This document shows, in pieces, positions 20,964-29,918 of a stretch of DNA of 64,000 bases. The DNA comes from Candidatus Caldatribacterium sp. GTDB taxonomy: Bacteria > Atribacterota > Atribacteria > Atribacterales > Caldatribacteriaceae. The notes under the pieces are model-generated. The model saw nothing but the letters and a program-made list of their open reading frames with translations. It ran no database searches and had not been told where the DNA came from. The DNA lies in the NCBI GenBank assembly GCA_028275365.1, contig JAPWUU010000002.1:9515-73514 (forward strand), given 5' to 3'. How positions within the stretch are numbered: the stretch's first letter is position 1; every line of letters begins with the position of its first letter. The translations under genes and the position numbers were made by a program.

Positions 20964-22412
20964 ATGGAGAACGTCTACGTGACCATCGGGCTTGAGGTTC
21001 ACTGTCAGCTCCTGACCCGGGCGAAGATGTTCTGTCGCTGCAGCACCGACTACATCGGGAAAACCCCCAATACCCTGGTGTGCCCGGTTTGCATGGGTCT
21101 TCCCGGAGCACTTCCGGTGCTCAACAGAAAAGCCTTAGAGCTTGCGATAAAAACCGCCCTGGCGCTACAGTGTGAGATCCTGCCGGAGGTGGTTTTCCAC
21201 CGGAAGAACTACTTCTATCCCGACCTCCCCAAGGGGTACCAGATTTCTCAGTACGATTTCCCTATCGGGGTGCGGGGAGTGCTGGAATTCGCCCTTCAGG
21301 GGGTAAAGAAGCGAGTTCGTATACGAAGGGTCCACGTGGAGGAGGACGCAGGGAAACTCGTCCATGAGGGGCCGGATCTCCGGGGGGCGGTCTCGGGGGT
21401 CGATTTTAACCGGGCTGGCATCCCGCTTGTCGAAATCGTCACCGAGCCGGATCTCCGCTCTCCTGAGGAGGCGAAGGAGTGCCTTGTGATGCTCAGGAGC
21501 ATTGTGCGGTACCTTGGGGTGAGCGACGGGAATATGGAAGAGGGGTCGCTGCGCTGTGATGCCAACGTTTCCGTCTCCCTTTCTCCAGAGATACCAGGCA
21601 CCAAGGTAGAGATCAAGAACATGAACTCTTTTCGCTCGGTCTTCCGGGCTCTGAGTTACGAAGTTGAGCGCCAGACGGAACTTCTTCGAGCGGGGAAAAC
21701 TCCGGTCCAGGAAACTCGCCACTGGGATGAGGCGCGCCAGGTGACCGTCCCCTCCCGGGGGAAAGAAGAAGCAGAAGATTACCGGTATTTCCCCGACCCA
21801 GACCTCCTCCCTTTTCGTATTCTTCCGGAGATGCTCCAGGAAATACGGGCGACCATTCCCGAGTTACCTCTTCAGAAGAAGGAACGATTCATGCGGGAGT
21901 ACGAACTCCCCGAGCCCGAGGCGTACATCCTTGCTCAGGACCGTGACCTTGCGGAATTCTTTGAAGCGTGTGTCCGGGAGTTTCCGTCTCCCCGGGCAGT
22001 CTGTAACTTCATACTCACTGAGGTCCTGAAAAACCTCAACAGTCTCAATATCAGTATTCGGGAGAGCAAGGTCACCCCGTCGATGCTGGCAGAGCTTTTG
22101 AAGATGGTGGAGCGCAAGGAAATTGGCATTTCCCTGGCCAAGGGCATCTTTGAGGAGATGTTCAGAACGGGGATGGGTGCAAGGGATGTCATGCTCAAAA
22201 AGGGGATTTCGTTCCTCACCAGTGAACGGGATCTCGAGAAGGTTGTTCGCGAAGTTATCGAAAAGAACCCCCAGAGTGTGGCCGATTACCTCCGGGGGAA
22301 GGAAAAGGCACTGCATTTCCTCATCGGACAGGTTATGAGGGTCACAAAGGGGCAGGCCAGTCCTGAAGTGGTGAAGAATTTGCTCCTCCGAGAGCTTTCA
22401 GGTGGTGAGTGA
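20964..22412 (+). CDS. gatB: Asp/Glu-tRNA amidotransferase subunit B
   Basis: [49 protein letters not shown]. Confidence 0.98.
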
Positions 22413-25400
22413 CGTGAAGTTCGTGCACCTCCACCTCCATACTGAGTACAGCCTCCTCGATGGTGTGATCCGTATCGATGAGCTTCTGGAACGCGTCGCT
22501 GCCTACGGGATGGAGGCTGTGGCCATCACCGACCATGGGGTCATGTATGGAGTTGTGGATTTCTATAAAAAGGCAAAGGAGAAAGGCATTCGGCCCATCA
22601 TCGGTTGCGAAGTCTACGTTGCTCCCGGAAGCCGTTTTGAGAAGGTTGTGGTGAAGGGGAGCGAGCCGGCGTACCACCTTGTGCTCCTTGCGGAGAATGA
22701 AGAAGGGTACCGGAACCTCATGGAACTCGTCACCCGGGCTTTCCTTGAGGGTTTCTACTACAAGCCCCGGGTGGATAAGGAGCTTTTGCGGGAGTACGCC
22801 CGTGGGCTCATTGCGCTTTCGGCCTGCCTTGCGGGAGAAATTCCCCGGCTGGTTCTTGCGGGGAACGTCGAGGAAGCCGAACGCTGCGCCCTGGAGTACC
22901 GGGACATTTTTGGCCCGGAGAATTTCTTCCTCGAGCTTCAGGAGAACAAAATTCCCGAGCAGAGAACGGTCAACGAAGCTCTGATCGCTATTGCCCGGAA
23001 AACTGGCATTCCCCTTGTAGCCACCAACGACTGCCATTACCTCGATGCCAAGGATGCCTACATGCATGACGTTGTTCTGGCGATTCAGACGGCGACTTCT
23101 CTTGATGACCCCAAGAGGCTCCGCTTCCCGACCCAGGACTTCTACCTGAAGTCGCCCCAGGAAATGATTGAGAGTTTTGCTTCCCTTCCTGAGGCCATTG
23201 AGAACACCTGGAATATTGCCGAACGCTGCCGTGTGGAGATCGAACTCGGAAAGGTTATTCTCCCTCGTTTTGATGTTCCTGAGGGTTTTGATGCCTTCTC
23301 GTATCTTGCACATCTCTGTGAGGAAGGGCTCAGGTGGCGTTATGGGGACCCTCCTCCCGAGCGGGTCCGAAAACAGCTTGAGTACGAACTCAAAGTGATT
23401 GAAGGCATGGGGTATGCAACCTATTTCCTCATTGTGTGGGATTTCGTGCACTTTGCTCGGGAGCGGGGCATCATGGTTGGACCAGGAAGGGGGTCAGCAG
23501 CGGGAAGCCTCGTCTCCTATGTCCTTGGCATCACCGATATCGACCCCCTGCAGTATGGCCTTCTCTTTGAGCGCTTTTTGAATCCTGAGCGGGTGAGTAT
23601 GCCCGATATCGACATCGATTTTTGCTTTGAGCGAAGGGACGAGGTCATCAAGTACGTGACCGAGAAGTACGGTGCCACCAATGTTGCCCAGATTATCACC
23701 TTCGGGCGGATGATGGCCCGCCAGGCTGTGCGCGATGTGGGAAGGGCTCTGGGATGGAGTTACAGTGACGTGGACAAAATCGCAAAGCTCATTCCTGGAG
23801 GACCGGGGGTCACTCTCGAGCGGGCGATGGAATCCAATCCTCAACTGCGGAAACTCGCCGAGGAGAACAAAGAGGTCAGGACGCTTCTTGATCTTGCTCA
23901 GCGTATTGAGGGGATGTGCCGTCATGCTTCGGTCCACGCCGCCGGAGTGGTTATCGCCGACCGACCGCTCACCTATTACGTTCCCCTGCAGAGGATGAAC
24001 GAGGGAGAAATCGTCACGCAGTTTGATATGGACGCTCTTCAGGAACTCGGCCTGCTCAAGATGGATTTCCTGGGTTTGAGGACGCTCACGGTCATTGAAC
24101 GAGCTCTGCGGATTATTAAAAATACCCGGGGTGAGGAAATCCGTCTTGACCGAATCCCTCTGGATGACCGCACCACCTATGAGCTCCTTGCCCGGGGAGA
24201 AACCGTTGGGGTGTTCCAGCTTGAGAGTGCGGGAATGCGGGAGCTTTTGAAGCGCCTGAAGCCCGAACACATCGAGGACCTCATCGCCATTCTGGCCCTG
24301 TACCGCCCAGGTCCCCTGGGAAGTGGCATGATCGACGATTTCATCGACCGCAAGCAAGGAAAGGTCCCAGTGACGTACCCCCATCCCTCCCTGGAGCCCA
24401 TCCTTCGGGAAACGTACGGTGTGATTGTGTACCAGGAACAGGTGATGAAGATTGCCAGTGAGTTCGCCGGGTTTACCCTTGGAGAAGCCGACATTCTCCG
24501 CCGGGCCATGGGGAAGAAGAAACCCGAAGTGATGAAGGAACAGCGGGAGAAGTTCGTTAGCGGTGCGGTGCAGCGGGGTCACAGCCGGGAAAAAGCCGAA
24601 GAACTCTTCGACATCATCGAGTACTTCGCAGGGTACGGTTTCAACAAATCCCACAGTGCAGCGTACGCGCTTGTGTCGTATCAAACGGCATACCTCAAGG
24701 CCCATTACCCCACTGAGTACCTTGCGGCCTGCCTCACGAGCGTGGCCAACGACAGCGACAAGGTAGCGAAATTCATCGCCGAGTGCCGGCGCCTGGGCAT
24801 TGATGTGTTGCCTCCGGATATCAACGAGAGCCTGGCCAACTTCACGGTGGTGGGGGATCGGCGTATTCGTTTCGGCCTTGCAGCCATCAAGAATGTGGGT
24901 GAGAGTGCGGTGGAGGAAATCCTCCTGCGCCGGAGAGAGGGCCGGTACCGGAGCATTTTCGACTTCATCGAGCGGGTCGACAGTCGCATTGTCAACCGGC
25001 GGGTTCTCGAAAGCCTCATCAAGGCCGGAGCCTTTGGAGGGCTTCATCCGAATCGGGCGCAGCTTCTGGCCTCCCTGGAAGACATCCTGTCCTATGGAGC
25101 AAGACGGCGGAAGAAAGAGCTGCGGCAGCATTCCCTCTTTGGAGAGGAGGTGACCGCTGAGGGAACACCTCCCCTCCGGGACGTAGCGGAGTTTTCCCGT
25201 CAGGAGCTCCTTCAGATGGAGAAGGAGATGCTGGGGTTTTACGTGAGTGACCATCCCTTCCGGGAAGCGGTGGCGGGGTTGCGGCACCTGCCCTTCTTCC
25301 CCCTGGGGCATTTGCGAATGCTCAAAGAAGAAATGCGGGTGAAGGTTGTGGGCATGGTGGGTAATGTTCGGAAAATCATCACCAAAACGGGAGGGGACAT

Positions 25401-25836
25401 GTACTTCGTGACCCTTGAGGACGAGACGGGAAGCATCGAGGTCATCTTCTTCCCCAACCTCTCTGAGGAACTGAAGGAGCGGCTTGGAAGCGGGAAGGTA
25501 CTTGGGGTGGTGGGAAAGCTCGATATCTTAGACAGTGGCGAGAACAAAATCGTTGCCGATGCCCTCTTTGACCCCGAGGAGTGGAATCGGAAACTGGCCA
25601 AGGCGGTCGTCATCGACCTTGAGGTGGAGAGGGACATCCTTCGGACCCTTTATGCCCTCCGGGATTGCCTCCGGAGGTTCCCTGGGAACTGTCCGGTTGT
25701 GCTTCGCCTCCAGGGCGGTGAGGGCGAGTGGTGGATTGAGCTTGACAGCACCTTCTGGGTTTCCTGGAGTGACGAGGCCCGGGAGGCCATTCAGAGTATT
25801 GTGGGTGAGGGTGCCGGGAGTCTGCAAACGCTTTAG
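22402..25836 (+). CDS. dnaE: DNA polymerase III alpha subunit
   Basis: [46 protein letters not shown] clamp-binding-like motif, OB fold. Confidence 0.98.
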
Positions 25837-25846
25837 GAGGGAAGCT

Positions 25847-26668
25847 GTGAGGCGGGTTGCCGTTGTCCTCGTGTTTGTTGTGGTTGTCCTGATTTTCAGC
25901 GGGACTTTTGCCTTTGCTCAGACGAAAGAGGAGTACTACCGTACCGGGTATATCTACTTCTCCCAGGGAGACTATGCGAGGGCTCTGGAGGCCTACAGGA
26001 AGGCTTTAGAGATGGACCCTCAGTTTGTGGATGCCCGGTACTGGCTGGGGAAAACCCTCGAACAGATGGGGCAGCTGCAGGAGGCGGTGAAGGAGTGGCG
26101 TCAGGTACTTTTGGCTTCTCCTCGCCACCGGGATGCCTTCCAGAAATGGCGAGCCTACGCACCGTCCTTTGTCCAGGACGGAGGGGTTGTGGAGCAGTAC
26201 AGAGCGCTTTTCTTAGAGGGGGAAAATCCAGCTCTTTCGCGGGAGGAAGGCTGGTCCACCCTTGCCCCCTTAGCCCTGGTACTTCTTGGGCGGAGGGACT
26301 TTTCCTCCCTCTACCTTGCTGCTTGGTGTTTCCGTTGGGCAAAAGAGCGCCTGAGCCCCCTCTTTGCTCCCTATGAGGAACGGGCGCTTCAGGGAGCGTT
26401 GGAAAACCTCACTCAGGATGACTGGATGCAGGACCCTCGTCTTGTCTACCGTTTCCTCCAGGAGGTCACCCTCCGTTTTGGAAAAGATGAGAAGTGGCAG
26501 GAGATACTGCAGAAAGCCCTGGATCGGGCATTCGCATACACCCTTGGCCTTCCTGAGGAGCAGAAAGCCGAAGGAGTAGAAGTAACGCTCCGTGGCGGAG
26601 AGGTGGAGAAGCGAATCATCCGTGGCGGAGAAGTGGAAGAGCCGACGGGGTTTTTCCTTAAGGAATGA
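25847..26668 (+). CDS. Exported TPR-repeat protein
   Basis: AGGAGG RBS + GTG; signal peptide ending AFA-Q; two TPRs (YYRTGYIYFSQGDYARALEAYRKALEMDP; YWLGKTLEQMGQLQEAVKEW). Confidence 0.75.
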   Translation: MRRVAVVLVFVVVVLIFSGTFAFAQTKEEYYRTGYIYFSQGDYARALEAYRKALEMDPQFVDARYWLGKTLEQMGQLQEAVKEWRQVLLASPRHRDAFQKWRAYAPSFVQDGGVVEQYRALFLEGENPALSREEGWSTLAPLALVLLGRRDFSSLYLAAWCFRWAKERLSPLFAPYEERALQGALENLTQDDWMQDPRLVYRFLQEVTLRFGKDEKWQEILQKALDRAFAYTLGLPEEQKAEGVEVTLRGGEVEKRIIRGGEVEEPTGFFLKE

Positions 26669-26757
26669 TGGTGCCGAAGGCGGGAGTCGAACCCGCACGG
26701 GGTGTGAACCCCGCTAGATTTTGAGTCTAGTGCGTCTGCCAGTTCCGCCACTTCGGC
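26669..26757 (-). tRNA. tRNA-Leu(CAA), CCA encoded
   Basis: Minus strand: GCCGAAG acceptor stem, CTAGA-CTCAAAA-TCTAG anticodon arm, long variable arm, GCGGG-TTCGACT-CCCGC T arm, ACCA end. Confidence 0.97.
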
Positions 26758-26769
26758 ACTCCGTTGTAG

Positions 26770-26797
26770 ATTATAGTGGAGCTTTGGGCTTTGTCAA
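26770..26797 (-). promoter_or_regulatory. Consensus sigma70 promoter for tRNA-Leu
   Basis: Minus strand TTGACA (26797-26792), 16-nt spacer, TATAAT (26775-26770), 12 nt upstream of the tRNA. Confidence 0.85.
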
Positions 26798-26802
26798 GCA
26801 AG

Positions 26803-28494
26803 ATGAAGAACCAGGACCTGGTCATTGCGGTTGATGGGACTTCGCTGGCGTACCGGGCGTTCTATGCACTGCCGAGGCTCACCACGTCCTCGGGGCGACC
26901 GACGGGGGCGACCCTTGGGTTCTGTAATATGCTGATGAGGCTGCTTGAAGATTACTCGCCCCTCACTATTGTGGTGGCCTTCGACCATCCGAAGAAGACG
27001 TTTCGCCACGCCCTTGAGGAGAAGTACAAGGTGTCCCGGAAACCCATGCCCGACCTCCTTCGACCTCAACTTGAGGATATCAAGGAAATCCTTTCGTGTT
27101 TTGGTTTCCCCATCCTTGAGGTCCCGGGATTCGAGGGGGATGACCTCATCGGGAGCCTCAAGGAGTGCCTTGGGGGGCGGTACCTTCTCTACGTGGTGAC
27201 CTCTGACCTTGATCTTCTGCAGCTCCTTGATGAACACACGATGCTCCTCCAGCCGGTTCAGGGAGTCACCCGCCTGCGCCCCATAGGTCCCCGGGATGTG
27301 GAGCGAGAATTCGGCGTCACTCCTGCTCAGATTGTTGACTTTCTGGCCTTAAGCGGTGATGCGTCTGACGATATCCAGGGTGTGCGGGGCATTGGGGAGA
27401 CGAGAGCGGCGCAGCTTTTGCAGAGGTTCACAAGCTGGGAAGGGATTCTCGCCCATGTTGAGGAACTTCCTCCGTCCCTGCGGGAGAGTCTCCTCAGGGC
27501 CCGGGAACAGGTGGAGGTGAACCGGGTGCTCGTGACCATTCGCAGGGATGTCCCCATCGACTGCCGTGTGGAGCCCTGGAGTCCTGAGCGGGTGGACTGG
27601 CCGCGCCTTTTGCAGAAACTCGAAGAGCTCGAGCTTCGAAGGCTCCGAGAACGGATTGAGAAGAGGTGGCAGCAGCAGCGTCCGTACCTTGTGCTCCGCA
27701 GGAAGGACCTCTTTGTAACCGATGGGAAGGACCTGAAGAACATCGCCGACATTCCCTCAGGACAGCCCTGGGGGTACCTTATTGCCTGTATTCAACCAGA
27801 TGCAGGGCATCTGAGGAAAGTCCTTGAAGCACCGGAGGTTTTCTGGGGTCAGGTTCTCCTGTGGGTTGTCTATCCCTGCCTCTTTCCACCGCCTGAGCAT
27901 TTGCGGCATCTTGAAGGGTTTGGAAAAACCGTCTCCTTTGAGGAGCTCGGTATGCTTCTTGAAGAAGCCCGGAAGTGGGTGACCTGTGAAACGACGCTCT
28001 TTGAGGTCTACCGGGATGTCGAGGTCCCGCTTGTGCTCAAATTTGCCCTTGGGGAGCTCTCCTTTGCGGCAGGTTTTCTTGACCTCCCGCTGTTTACCCC
28101 TCCCTGTGCCTTTGTGGTGGAGGAAGTTGTTCCCCCGAGGGATCTGATGCAGAGGATCCATGAAGTTCGTGGGTACGTTGCGCTGCCGACGCTCTATGGA
28201 TGGCGGTTTGTGGGTAGGTACGGGGAATCCCGAGAAGAGCTCCTTGTGGCCTATGAAAATACCTGCCGGGAAGAAGTTTTCCGCCTTTTGGCCTGGGTCC
28301 TGAGCGCAGGAGGTGTCCGGCAGCTGTGCAGGGCAGGGAAGCAGCTCTCTGCCGATATCCCCCTTTTCTCTGGGGATTTCAGGCAGTTTCTCGGTGTGTT
28401 TTCGGAATGGTTTCTTAAGGGGAAGTGGCGGCTCGAGGTCGTGGAACGAGGGAAAGGAGAGTGTGGACTCCTGGTCATAGGAGAGGGAGGATGA
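26803..28494 (+). CDS. Pol I-derived protein: intact 5'-3' exonuclease/flap endonuclease plus degenerate polymerase remnant
   Basis: VDGTSLAYRAFYA, FD, YK..RKPMP, FEGDDLIG, SDLDLLQ, GDASDDIQGVRGIG; C-terminal half lacks PolA motifs A/B/C. Confidence 0.85.
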   Translation: MKNQDLVIAVDGTSLAYRAFYALPRLTTSSGRPTGATLGFCNMLMRLLEDYSPLTIVVAFDHPKKTFRHALEEKYKVSRKPMPDLLRPQLEDIKEILSCFGFPILEVPGFEGDDLIGSLKECLGGRYLLYVVTSDLDLLQLLDEHTMLLQPVQGVTRLRPIGPRDVEREFGVTPAQIVDFLALSGDASDDIQGVRGIGETRAAQLLQRFTSWEGILAHVEELPPSLRESLLRAREQVEVNRVLVTIRRDVPIDCRVEPWSPERVDWPRLLQKLEELELRRLRERIEKRWQQQRPYLVLRRKDLFVTDGKDLKNIADIPSGQPWGYLIACIQPDAGHLRKVLEAPEVFWGQVLLWVVYPCLFPPPEHLRHLEGFGKTVSFEELGMLLEEARKWVTCETTLFEVYRDVEVPLVLKFALGELSFAAGFLDLPLFTPPCAFVVEEVVPPRDLMQRIHEVRGYVALPTLYGWRFVGRYGESREELLVAYENTCREEVFRLLAWVLSAGGVRQLCRAGKQLSADIPLFSGDFRQFLGVFSEWFLKGKWRLEVVERGKGECGLLVIGEGG

Positions 28495-29918
28495 ACGTGG
28501 AAGTTGTGCTCGTTGCTTCGGAGGCATATCCTTTTGCCAAAAGCGGCGGTCTGGGGGACGTGGTGGGAGCTCTGTTCAAATACCTCCCCCGCTTTGGGTT
28601 TCGGGTCAAGCTCTTCCTCCCCGGATACGCCCGGATGTTGCAGGATTTCCCTTTTGTTAGGCAAAAGGCCCTGGAGTTCCCCTTTGGGGAGACCATGGCC
28701 CGGGCGGAATTTCTTGAGTACAGGATAGACGACAGCCAATCCCTTTTCGCTGTGGCCTGTGAACGCTTTTTTGGGCGTGAGCGGATGTACGGGTATCCTG
28801 ATGACCTCGAGCGGTTCATCTTCTTCTCCCGGGCGGTGTTCGAGTACCTGGTGCGCTGGCAGGAAGAAGTTTTCCTCCTGCACTGTCACGACTGGCAGAG
28901 CGCCCTCCTTTGTGCCTACCTTGAGCGGTACTGGCCTCAGTATCGGCCCAGAGCCGCAAAAGTCCTTTTCACCATTCACAATCTTGCCTACCAGGGCATT
29001 GGACGGGGAGAACTCTTCCGGCTGGTCAACCTCCCCAATCACTTCTTCACCCATGAGTACCTTGAGTTCTACGGGAACCTCAATCTCATGAAGGCGGGTC
29101 TCCTCTTCTCCCACATCATCACCACCGTGAGCCCTACCTATGCTCGTGAGATTTGCTCTCCCGAGTTCGGGGAAGGTCTTGATGGTCTCCTTCGGGCTCT
29201 GTCCCATCGCAAGAAAATCGTGGGGATTGTCAACGGCATTGACACGGAAATTTTCCACCCCAGCCTTGACCCCTTCCTCGAGGAACACTACGGGAGGGAG
29301 AACCTTGAAGGGAAAAGAAAGAATAAACTCCGCTTCCTCGAACAGTACTTTGGTCCGGGGGTGGAGGCAACCCTTCCTGTCATCGCCTTTATTTCCCGCT
29401 TTGTGGAGCAGAAGGGGATACGGCTTTTCCTGGAACGTCCTGAGGAGTTTTTCTCCCTCCCGGCATACTGGTTCTTCCTGGGTATGGGTGAGGCCTTCTA
29501 CGAACGGGCACTGAAAGACCTTGAGCAGCACTATCCCAGGCTGCGGGTGATGGTGATGTTCGACGAGAGTCTTGCCCATCTTGCCTATGCCGCCTCAGAC
29601 TTCCTGGTGCTGCCATCGCTTTTTGAGCCCTGCGGCATCAGCCAGATGATCGCCATGTGTTACGGCACACTCCCCATTGTCCGGGGGGTGGGTGGACTTA
29701 GGGATACGGTTGTTGACTACCCTTTCAATCCCCGTCTCAGCACTGGGTTCCAATTTGGAGAATTCTCAGCCAGTGAGTTTCTCCGGGCGGTCAGGAGGGC
29801 ACTCCATGTGTACTTTGAGGACCAGGATCTCTTCTACACCATGGTGGCCAATGCCATGGCGAGCGATTTCTCCTGGGAACAGGCCATCAAGAGGTACGTT
29901 GAGGTCTACAGGGAATAA
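28491..29918 (+). CDS. glgA: Glycogen synthase
   Basis: PFAKSGGLGDV, HCHDWQ, TIHNLAYQG, SRFVEQKG, FEPCGISQ. Confidence 0.95.
   Translation: MNVEVVLVASEAYPFAKSGGLGDVVGALFKYLPRFGFRVKLFLPGYARMLQDFPFVRQKALEFPFGETMARAEFLEYRIDDSQSLFAVACERFFGRERMYGYPDDLERFIFFSRAVFEYLVRWQEEVFLLHCHDWQSALLCAYLERYWPQYRPRAAKVLFTIHNLAYQGIGRGELFRLVNLPNHFFTHEYLEFYGNLNLMKAGLLFSHIITTVSPTYAREICSPEFGEGLDGLLRALSHRKKIVGIVNGIDTEIFHPSLDPFLEEHYGRENLEGKRKNKLRFLEQYFGPGVEATLPVIAFISRFVEQKGIRLFLERPEEFFSLPAYWFFLGMGEAFYERALKDLEQHYPRLRVMVMFDESLAHLAYAASDFLVLPSLFEPCGISQMIAMCYGTLPIVRGVGGLRDTVVDYPFNPRLSTGFQFGEFSASEFLRAVRRALHVYFEDQDLFYTMVANAMASDFSWEQAIKRYVEVYRE

Follow-up and report, generated by a model that had tools for sequence, protein, structure and literature searches.

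Nick translation by DNA polymerase I (Pol I) is the textbook route of primer removal. We analysed a 64,000-nucleotide stretch of DNA (hereafter, the window; GenBank assembly GCA_028275365.1, contig JAPWUU010000002.1, positions 9,515–73,514) from a Candidatus Caldatribacterium genome, a metagenome-assembled genome (MAG) of a hot-spring bacterium with 89.65% completeness. One gene of the window, at 26803–28494 on the forward strand (as are all window features below unless stated), encodes a predicted flap nuclease fused to what appears to be a pseudo-polymerase stub. Pol I is present in ~96% of bacterial genomes, and the ~4% of complete genomes without Pol A mostly carry a solo 5′–3′ exonuclease, according to a survey (PMC12926913). 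Isolates of Caldatribacterium exist (PMC13408713), and the paper that reports their isolation does not mention DNA polymerases.

Compared with bacterial Pol I (PolA1), especially the Taq enzyme with its vestigial 3′–5′ exonuclease, the protein has the same nuclease carboxylates and linker, an exonuclease-like sheet followed by a palm-like core, a 'vE.PL' helix and a T-L-x-G-x-R hairpin. However, ~275 residues follow the nuclease here against ~540–600 in Pol I, and the whole polymerase is vestigial, whereas in Taq only the exonuclease is. Genomes without a family-A polymerase retain the nuclease function in the form of solo 5′–3′ exonucleases, a likeness to the present case; unlike those, the Caldatribacterium protein has a folded pseudo-polymerase remnant and a clamp-type motif, neither of which is described for the solo forms in the part of the survey on which we draw (PMC12926913). 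True solo nucleases of ~305 amino acids (aa) occupy the same locus in sister genera. In split Pol I (Aquifex, 8jrb; and, among the genomes searched here, the Atribacter-like family f4), the nuclease is likewise encoded apart from the polymerase activity, with f4 having a nuclease of 304–313 aa at the locus and a Klenow-like gene elsewhere, but no Klenow-like gene was found in Caldatribacterium or in families f1–f3.

That a short hydrophobic motif, located in a flexible segment, can tether a flap nuclease to a clamp is known from archaeal and eukaryotic FEN1, in which a C-terminal PIP box binds PCNA (PMC1636371). The likeness extends to nuclease-only orthologues of the Caldatribacterium protein, which bear their motif at the extreme C terminus. 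Unlike FEN1, the nuclease is of the bacterial Pol I type, the clamp would be the beta dimer, the motif is [DEST]-L-P-L-F rather than QxxLxxFF, and binding is a prediction. Two active polymerases offer a further parallel: PolA2/APEX has a QxxLF clamp motif in a vestigial exonuclease loop (PMC12926913) and Mycobacterium tuberculosis Pol I has the clamp motif QLSLLDD (bioRxiv 10.64898/2026.09.19.751633). Like our protein, both have a clamp-binding peptide in a loop that belongs to a degenerate Pol A domain; their motifs, however, lie in the exonuclease region and are reported to be lineage-specific, whereas here the motif follows the VExPL helix, apparently at the thumb position, and no polymerase site remains. 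In our literature searches we found neither an account of a nuclease joined to a collapsed Pol A fold nor one of a bacterial Pol I-type nuclease that bears a clamp motif.

From sequence and structural models, we favour the reading that this gene is the Caldatribacterium descendant of polA and encodes a flap nuclease tethered to the clamp and carried on a pseudo-polymerase scaffold, and we put its probability at roughly 60%. An intact Pol I 5′–3′ nuclease in the N-terminal part had been proposed in an earlier reading of the letters of the window (hereafter, the sequence-only reading), and profile searches agree. Pfam matches span residues 8–263 and both exceed their curated cut-offs: the N-terminal, resolvase-like domain covers residues 8–171 (26824–27315; PF02739, 5_3_exonuc_N, E = 6e-47, 159.8 bits against 34.3), and the H3TH/SAM-fold domain covers residues 172–263 (27316–27591; PF01367, 5_3_exonuc, E = 4e-27, 95 bits against 40). 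Two clusters of metal-binding carboxylates are present. D11, D61, E111, D113, D114, D135 and D137 lie in the first domain and D186 and D189, along with GIGE, in the second; all nine are invariant in an alignment of 22 orthologues (22/22). The motifs themselves start at 26830 (VDG), 26980 (FDH), 27130 (FEGDD), 27202 (SDLD), 27355 (GDASDD) and 27388 (GIGE). A Pol I-type linker helix follows (residues 264–294; 27592–27684), into which the NCBIfam Pol I equivalogs reach as far as residue 291 and an alignment to Mycobacterium smegmatis Pol1 as far as residue 286. These NCBIfam models cover residues 8–291 only, with 273 and 266 bits against cut-offs of 720 and 600, and the best stand-alone 5′–3′ exonuclease model gives the nuclease half 206 bits as opposed to 273. 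Solved Pol I structures match the nuclease portion only in a PDB sequence search. The nuclease half thus reads as an intact Pol I-type 5′–3′, or flap, nuclease that is presumably active.

Two elements are added here to the sequence-only reading: a conserved clamp-type motif, which it had not seen, and a three-stage series of reduction. The motif, D-L-P-L-F at residues 427–431 (28081–28095), is predicted to bind the beta sliding clamp (DnaN) and lies in a flexible loop approximately where the Pol A thumb would be expected. L428, P429 and L430 are invariant in the 22-orthologue alignment and F431 nearly so, with the pattern [DESG]-L-[PS]-L-[FL] in 22/22. In the structural model of the C-terminal half, the motif loop is the sole low-confidence loop of the core, with a predicted local distance difference test score (pLDDT) below 50 at sub-domain residues 53–56 and of ~60 for the block. 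We co-folded the stub of a SIUC1-like orthologue with DnaN from the same genome, supplying a separate alignment for each protein; a close relative's DnaN was used because a contig break cuts dnaN in the genome of the window (G000), leaving residues 34–360 on contig C114 (14078–15058) and residues 1–32 on contig C45 (6496–6591). The pair scored 0.66, 0.59 and 0.61, compared with 0.01, 0.00 and 0.00 for three controls, where the mark applied is reached by 58 of 80 solved complexes and by 2 of 110 mismatched pairs. The runs share at least 90% of their contacts, with a partner pLDDT of at least 79, and place the LPLF residues against DnaN residues 169–174 (the ATDGHRL segment), 235–242, 339 and 351–353, which form the canonical peptide pocket between domains II and III. 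The motif is thus a conserved one of the xLxLF type, lies in a flexible, exposed segment and, in the co-fold, occupies the canonical DnaN pocket. Because clamp–peptide complexes have been solved many times over, the co-fold shows likeness to a clamp motif rather than binding; we regard LPLF as probably a real clamp-binding motif.

All three stages of loss can be seen in the lineage: Pol I is complete in the sister class, reduced to the nuclease plus a dead stub in this genome and in most families of its order, and pared down to the nuclease plus a short tail in two clades. All 11 complete nuclease-only orthologues at the same chromosomal slot end in KTLPLF, ALPLF, SLPLF, ELPLF, TLPFF, AQSLF, GSLF or RSLF, the tail motif sitting 5–10 residues ahead of the stop, and ELSLF is present in one distant member that retains the stub. 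In the sister class, full-length Pol I has no clamp motif past the VExPL helix, with LxLF-type matches elsewhere in those proteins, and so gives no sign that the motif predates the reduction. As the one element common to the last two stages, the motif suggests that selection is protecting clamp tethering rather than the polymerase fold.

The other part of the favoured reading, that the stub descends from the exonuclease and polymerase part of Pol A, is in our judgement very probably correct. An AlphaFold2 (AF2) model of the C-terminal half, built with the family alignment, is compact and confident (pLDDT 80; predicted template-modelling score, pTM, 0.83) and runs from a small sheet with helices through two long helices and a loop to an alpha/beta core made of hairpin, long helix, hairpin, helix and hairpin. 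The small beta-sheet and helices (residues ~295–378; 27685–27936; AF2 secondary structure, variable columns) would be the remnant of a 3′–5′ exonuclease-like domain: structural matches to family-A polymerases begin within their exonuclease domain (for example, Taq residue 304 and Klenow residue 343), and weaker matches to ExnV1 and RNase D also cover these residues. The two long helices (residues 379–415; 27937–28047; pLDDT ~90) include Y-R-D-V-E-V-P-L at 28009–28032. The putative palm-like remnant (residues 432–563; 28096–28491) comprises a strand where motif A would lie, the TLYGWRF hairpin (28189–28209), a long helix carrying the invariant E491, a hairpin where motif C would lie (28321–28362) and a final hairpin. 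Throughout the C-terminal half, P358, E407, L428, P429, L430, T463, Y465, R468 and E491 are invariant in the family alignment and Y403 is near-invariant.

Structural likeness of the C terminus to Pol A, a check that the sequence-only reading had proposed, emerged from three kinds of search. An exhaustive structural search with the stub model ranked family-A polymerases in all of its top 14 places, with colinear alignments over 216–240 of 278 residues, about twice the coverage of unrelated matches; the exonuclease-like and palm-like fold superposes on these solved polymerases. A shape search of the ESM Atlas placed a DNA_pol_A cluster first (TM 0.53, 222 residues aligned; second row 0.37), and a language-model feature search of the same resource with residues 286–563 returned DNA_pol_A/DNA_polI_exo1 clusters at 0.86, which counts as a lead only. 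Comparison by hhalign of the stub with a 26-sequence Pol I alignment gave one match of 23 columns (E = 0.046, probability ~1%), setting the VExPL helix onto the 'vE.PLv' helix that opens the polymerase domain; a relaxed run merely lengthened this match and added a second, meaningless one. The by-eye alignments to Pol A in the sequence-only reading therefore fare unequally. VYRDVEVPLV (28006) gains weak profile–profile support from that match, whereas the other two (GYVALPTLYGWRF, 28171; QLCRAGKQLSADIP, 28321) fit by fold position only and not residue by residue, hhalign giving no sequence-level support to the TLYGWRF/GRRR and motif C equivalences. The fourth stretch quoted, WRLEV, lies at 28426.

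Several points weigh against the favoured reading. The co-fold can pass through memory of solved clamp–peptide complexes, and it used the proteins of a close relative (89% identical) rather than the window's own; the motif of the window's protein lacks the usual leading Gln of QL[SD]LF; and a scan found the motif pattern in neither DnaE nor PolX. Sequence methods are nearly blind to the likeness to Pol A: Pfam finds nothing in residues 290–563 even at E ≤ 1, Foldseek against the PDB reaches a best E of 0.18 and 0.085 with two models, neither significant, and a stub profile searched against 1.84 billion proteins returned 11 matches, all to its own family save fragments and one repetitive 1936-aa protein that we set aside. 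Because that search returns its own family only, the C-terminal half is, as far as profiles reach, confined to this Atribacterota group. Moreover, the placing of motifs A and C rests on topology, without residue-level structural superposition, and the genome of the window is an incomplete MAG, though closed relatives agree with it.

The missing Gln and the possible memory of the co-fold would be accommodated if the stub were a Pol A remnant whose LPLF is a structural loop or binds another partner (PolX, ligase, SSB or the nuclease domain), the main task of the remnant then being to bind DNA and hold the upstream duplex or nick for the nuclease, as the Pol I polymerase domain does. Purifying selection acts on the folded stub beyond the motif, with E407, T463, R468 and E491 among the other invariant residues, and E. 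coli Pol I has no clamp motif according to one report (bioRxiv 10.64898/2026.09.19.751633), both of which also fit such a role. We nevertheless consider it unlikely. A motif that persists as a bare C-terminal tail in 11 orthologues without the rest of the stub is hard to square with a structural role, the docking is into the canonical pocket while the controls stay at 0.00–0.01, and acidic residues outnumber basic ones in the stub (37 D+E against 33 K+R), which is not suggestive of a strong DNA-binding surface.

Less probable still is that the C-terminal 275 residues are unrelated to Pol A and form a foreign domain on a stand-alone nuclease, the likeness arising from an RNase H-like sheet and a ferredoxin/RRM-like palm. 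The lack of significance in sequence comparison and in Foldseek is what this would predict, and when the palm part is searched alone, Pol A matches are still at the top yet not cleanly separated from small alpha/beta folds, with eL22 and POTRA at similar Z. Against it, the three independent searches each rank family-A polymerases first, the colinear stretch is about twice as long as in unrelated matches, and the single sequence anchor, the VExPL helix, falls at the colinear place. The nuclease half, too, is nearest to Pol I nucleases by profile score, and in a tree it is sister to Pol I nucleases of the sister class (100/100).

On a clamp-tethered scaffold, the polymerase itself would be inactive. 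The sequence-only reading had noted that the C-terminal half lacks the polymerase motifs and is far shorter than a Klenow fragment, which our searches bear out: the DNA_pol_A model (PF00476) has no match in residues 290–563 at E ≤ 1, and motifs A (DYSQIELR), B (RxxxKxxxFxxxYG) and C (HDE) are absent. From the VExPL helix to the TLYGWRF hairpin there are ~55 residues compared with ~300 in Pol I, and therefore thumb, fingers and motif B have been lost; neither fingers nor thumb is seen in the predicted model. The presumed motif A and motif C carboxylate positions vary within the family (E/G/R/K/D/N/S/H, and AG/VG/EG/GD and others). For the DEDD exonuclease, there is no PF01612 or PF22619 match and no conserved acidic column in residues 295–378. 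As judged by sequence and model, the stub cannot polymerise, having lost thumb, fingers and catalytic carboxylates. Cryptic catalysis by non-canonical residues (as a minimal nucleotidyl transferase, 3′–5′ exonuclease or lyase) could draw on the invariant charged residues E407, R468 and E491 and on the purifying selection, but it is highly improbable for a fold without fingers for an incoming dNTP or template, in which the equivalents of the metal-binding carboxylates vary and the DEDD motif is absent, and which two clades have deleted outright.

The closest named proteins are from Candidatus Caldatribacterium (Atribacterota), that of C. inferamans strain SIUC1, which is cultured and has a closed genome, being 89% identical, and 21 full-length relatives of 550–646 aa from Caldatribacterium and other Atribacterota align end to end. 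The nuclease-stub form occurs in 18 of the 41 Atribacterota genomes searched, namely in all nine from the genus, in families f1–f3 and in some of f4, and its frame is open in 17 of these 18, down to ~20% identity. Pairwise dN/dS is 0.18–0.37 for the stub (0.57 in one very close pair) and 0.06–0.15 for the nuclease, indicating that the stub is under purifying selection, more relaxed than that on the nuclease. Conservation in four families and dN/dS well below 1 mark the stub as retained rather than decaying. That it is a functionless tail heading for deletion, open by chance or for read-through to the start of the downstream glgA gene, is very improbable given the confident compact fold, the invariant core residues, the low dN/dS and the breadth of open frames, even if the stub has been lost twice in the order and has a dN/dS 2–4 times as high as the nuclease, and even if its stop runs into the glgA start, with the glgA ribosome-binding site within its last codons.

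The one split frame is in a same-genus MAG (G001, contig C46; locus L021, 14490–16123), in which the orthologue is divided into frames of 456 and 135 codons; the break falls at about stub residue 141–143, beside the LPLF region, and is a frameshift or an assembly error. Misassembly or recent decay as the origin of the architecture in the window was rejected, as the same architecture is found in 18 genomes, three of them single-contig.

The gene order dnaE–TPR–nuclease–glgA–coaE–uvrBAC is conserved across the order, and the nuclease slot in it holds either the nuclease-stub gene or a shorter nuclease-only gene of 304–313 codons, the latter in two clades. Full-length polA, for which the sequence-only reading had suggested looking in relatives, was found at this slot in none of them. 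Its further suggestion, that the locus is probably the one at which this organism has its own polA, is not confirmed by synteny: the sister-class polA examined stands in another context (G033), with no shared neighbours within 20 kb. In a tree of the nuclease domain, every nuclease of the order falls in a single clade whose closest neighbour is that of the sister-class Pol I nucleases, and the short forms make up two separate clades (100/100; 85/97) among stub-bearing lineages, which requires at least two changes of state. The tree fits an ancestral stub that was deleted twice, with the motif kept through both deletions.

If the stub cannot polymerise, gaps would have to be filled by another enzyme. 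No DNA_pol_A match was found in the genome of the window, in 15 of 16 same-family genomes, in families f2 and f3 or in three single-contig genomes of the order (G004, G017 and G020). An intact polA elsewhere in the genome, which the sequence-only reading had asked about, was thus not found, and closed relatives concur. The genome of the window has one DnaE, one PolX and RNase HII, and no match to Y-family or B-family polymerases. Its PolX is colinear with Thermus thermophilus PolX (E = 3e-152), conserves the catalytic D198, D200 and D243, and has counterparts in 34 of the 41 genomes of the phylum. Gap filling would most plausibly be done by PolX or Pol III (DnaE).

The sole same-family exception is an 857-aa fusion of UDG, 3′–5′ exonuclease and DNA_pol_A in a same-genus genome (G008, contig C26, 8994 bp); the contig also carries a DnaB-like helicase, a DnaG-like primase and a D12-class (Dam) adenine methylase (L023, 1350–8927), and the fusion looks like part of a mobile-element replication module, from a phage or plasmid. 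Another mobile-element-type family-A polymerase in an Atribacterota MAG is a 906-aa open frame with AAA_25, 3′–5′ exonuclease and DNA_pol_A domains, running to the contig end (G028, contig C177; L025, 1329–4049, reverse strand). The sister class has ordinary Pol I of 872–921 aa. The separate f4 gene is of 588–616 aa and encodes exonuclease and DNA_pol_A domains without the nuclease domain (L024, 3808–5574, reverse strand; L026, 2516–4366, forward strand); in a polymerase-domain tree, its product sits on a very long branch, apart from sister-class Pol I and all others sampled, and it may be either a divergent vertical copy or a transfer. Genome G028 carries both this f4-type gene and the stub-bearing nuclease.

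Under the favoured reading, the 3′–5′ exonuclease and polymerase domains would have collapsed to the folded stub of ~275 residues, with its small exonuclease-like sheet and palm-like core, and this dead remnant would serve as a scaffold that presents the flexible D-L-P-L-F loop. The loop would insert into the hydrophobic pocket of DnaN, and the clamp left at a primer 3′ end would bring the nuclease to the flaps that arise from RNA primers and from repair. PolX or Pol III, seated on either protomer of the clamp, could then displace the RNA primer or damaged strand; the nuclease would cut the resulting flap and ligase would seal the nick. The remnant may still contact the upstream duplex, a speculative step in view of the net acidic stub. 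In this scheme, nuclease activity, clamp binding in the cell and the identity of the gap-filling enzyme are all inferred. A broader proposal is that Caldatribacteriaceae and sister families mature Okazaki fragments and resynthesize DNA in excision repair without Pol I, with an LPLF-clamped flap nuclease beside PolX or Pol III on the other protomer and a dead remnant that still recognizes the primer terminus or nick and positions the nuclease, forming a bacterial tool-belt convergent with PCNA–FEN1–Pol delta; we offer this tentatively, as somewhat less likely to hold than to fail.

A collapsed polymerase fold with a non-catalytic role, and another enzyme for gap filling, is also the interpretation at which the sequence-only reading had arrived, and the present results support it, none of the three refuting conditions named there having been observed. 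A whole cultured thermophilic lineage would be without the Pol I polymerase. If confirmed, the protein would be a clear bacterial counterpart to the FEN1–PCNA link and a natural pseudo-enzyme derived from a DNA polymerase, with gap filling then necessarily by PolX or Pol III.

The gene itself (26803–28494) translates without interruption into 563 residues followed by a TGA stop, in accord with the open frame described in the sequence-only reading, and every motif quoted there was found in place. An ORF listing offers an alternative upstream GTG start at 26776; the Met corresponding to 26803 is the start in two close orthologues (P0004 and P0005). In the window, dnaE (22402–25836) is followed by a TPR protein, a minus-strand tRNA-Leu, the nuclease-stub gene, glgA, coaE, uvrB, uvrA, uvrC and whiA. 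The gene had been described as upstream of uvrBAC, and it does lie upstream of all three uvr genes, but glgA and coaE intervene.

The TPR-repeat protein between dnaE and the nuclease gene (25535–26668) keeps its place across the order, with 30–91% identity in genomes G024, G013 and G004. The tRNA-Leu(CAA) gene (26669–26757, reverse strand) sits 46 bp ahead of the ATG of the nuclease gene, with the TPR gene on its other side, and probably separates dnaE–TPR from a nuclease–glgA–coaE–uvr unit. Metatranscriptome contigs stack over it to a summed depth of ~370 at most, and these are tRNAs of other organisms that match the conserved arms only. Elsewhere, metatranscriptome contigs from four hot-spring or freshwater studies cover patches in both halves of the gene (for example, 26669–27180, 27642–27889, 28056–28206 and 28429–28604), the last of which bridges into glgA; such contigs cannot show transcription, its level or its strand, and uncovered parts carry no meaning.

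The nuclease-stub gene and glgA overlap by ATGA at 28491–28494, where the stop of the one is the start of the other. In the longer, GTG-started ORF at 28425–29918, the Pfam match of glgA begins at residue 27, consistent with a glgA start at 28491. The last codons of the nuclease-stub gene, which encode a widely conserved C-terminal G-E-G-G, read GGAGAGGGAGG (28481–28494) and form the Shine–Dalgarno sequence of glgA, so the conserved end of the protein may reflect a constraint at the RNA level and be a sign of translational coupling with glgA.

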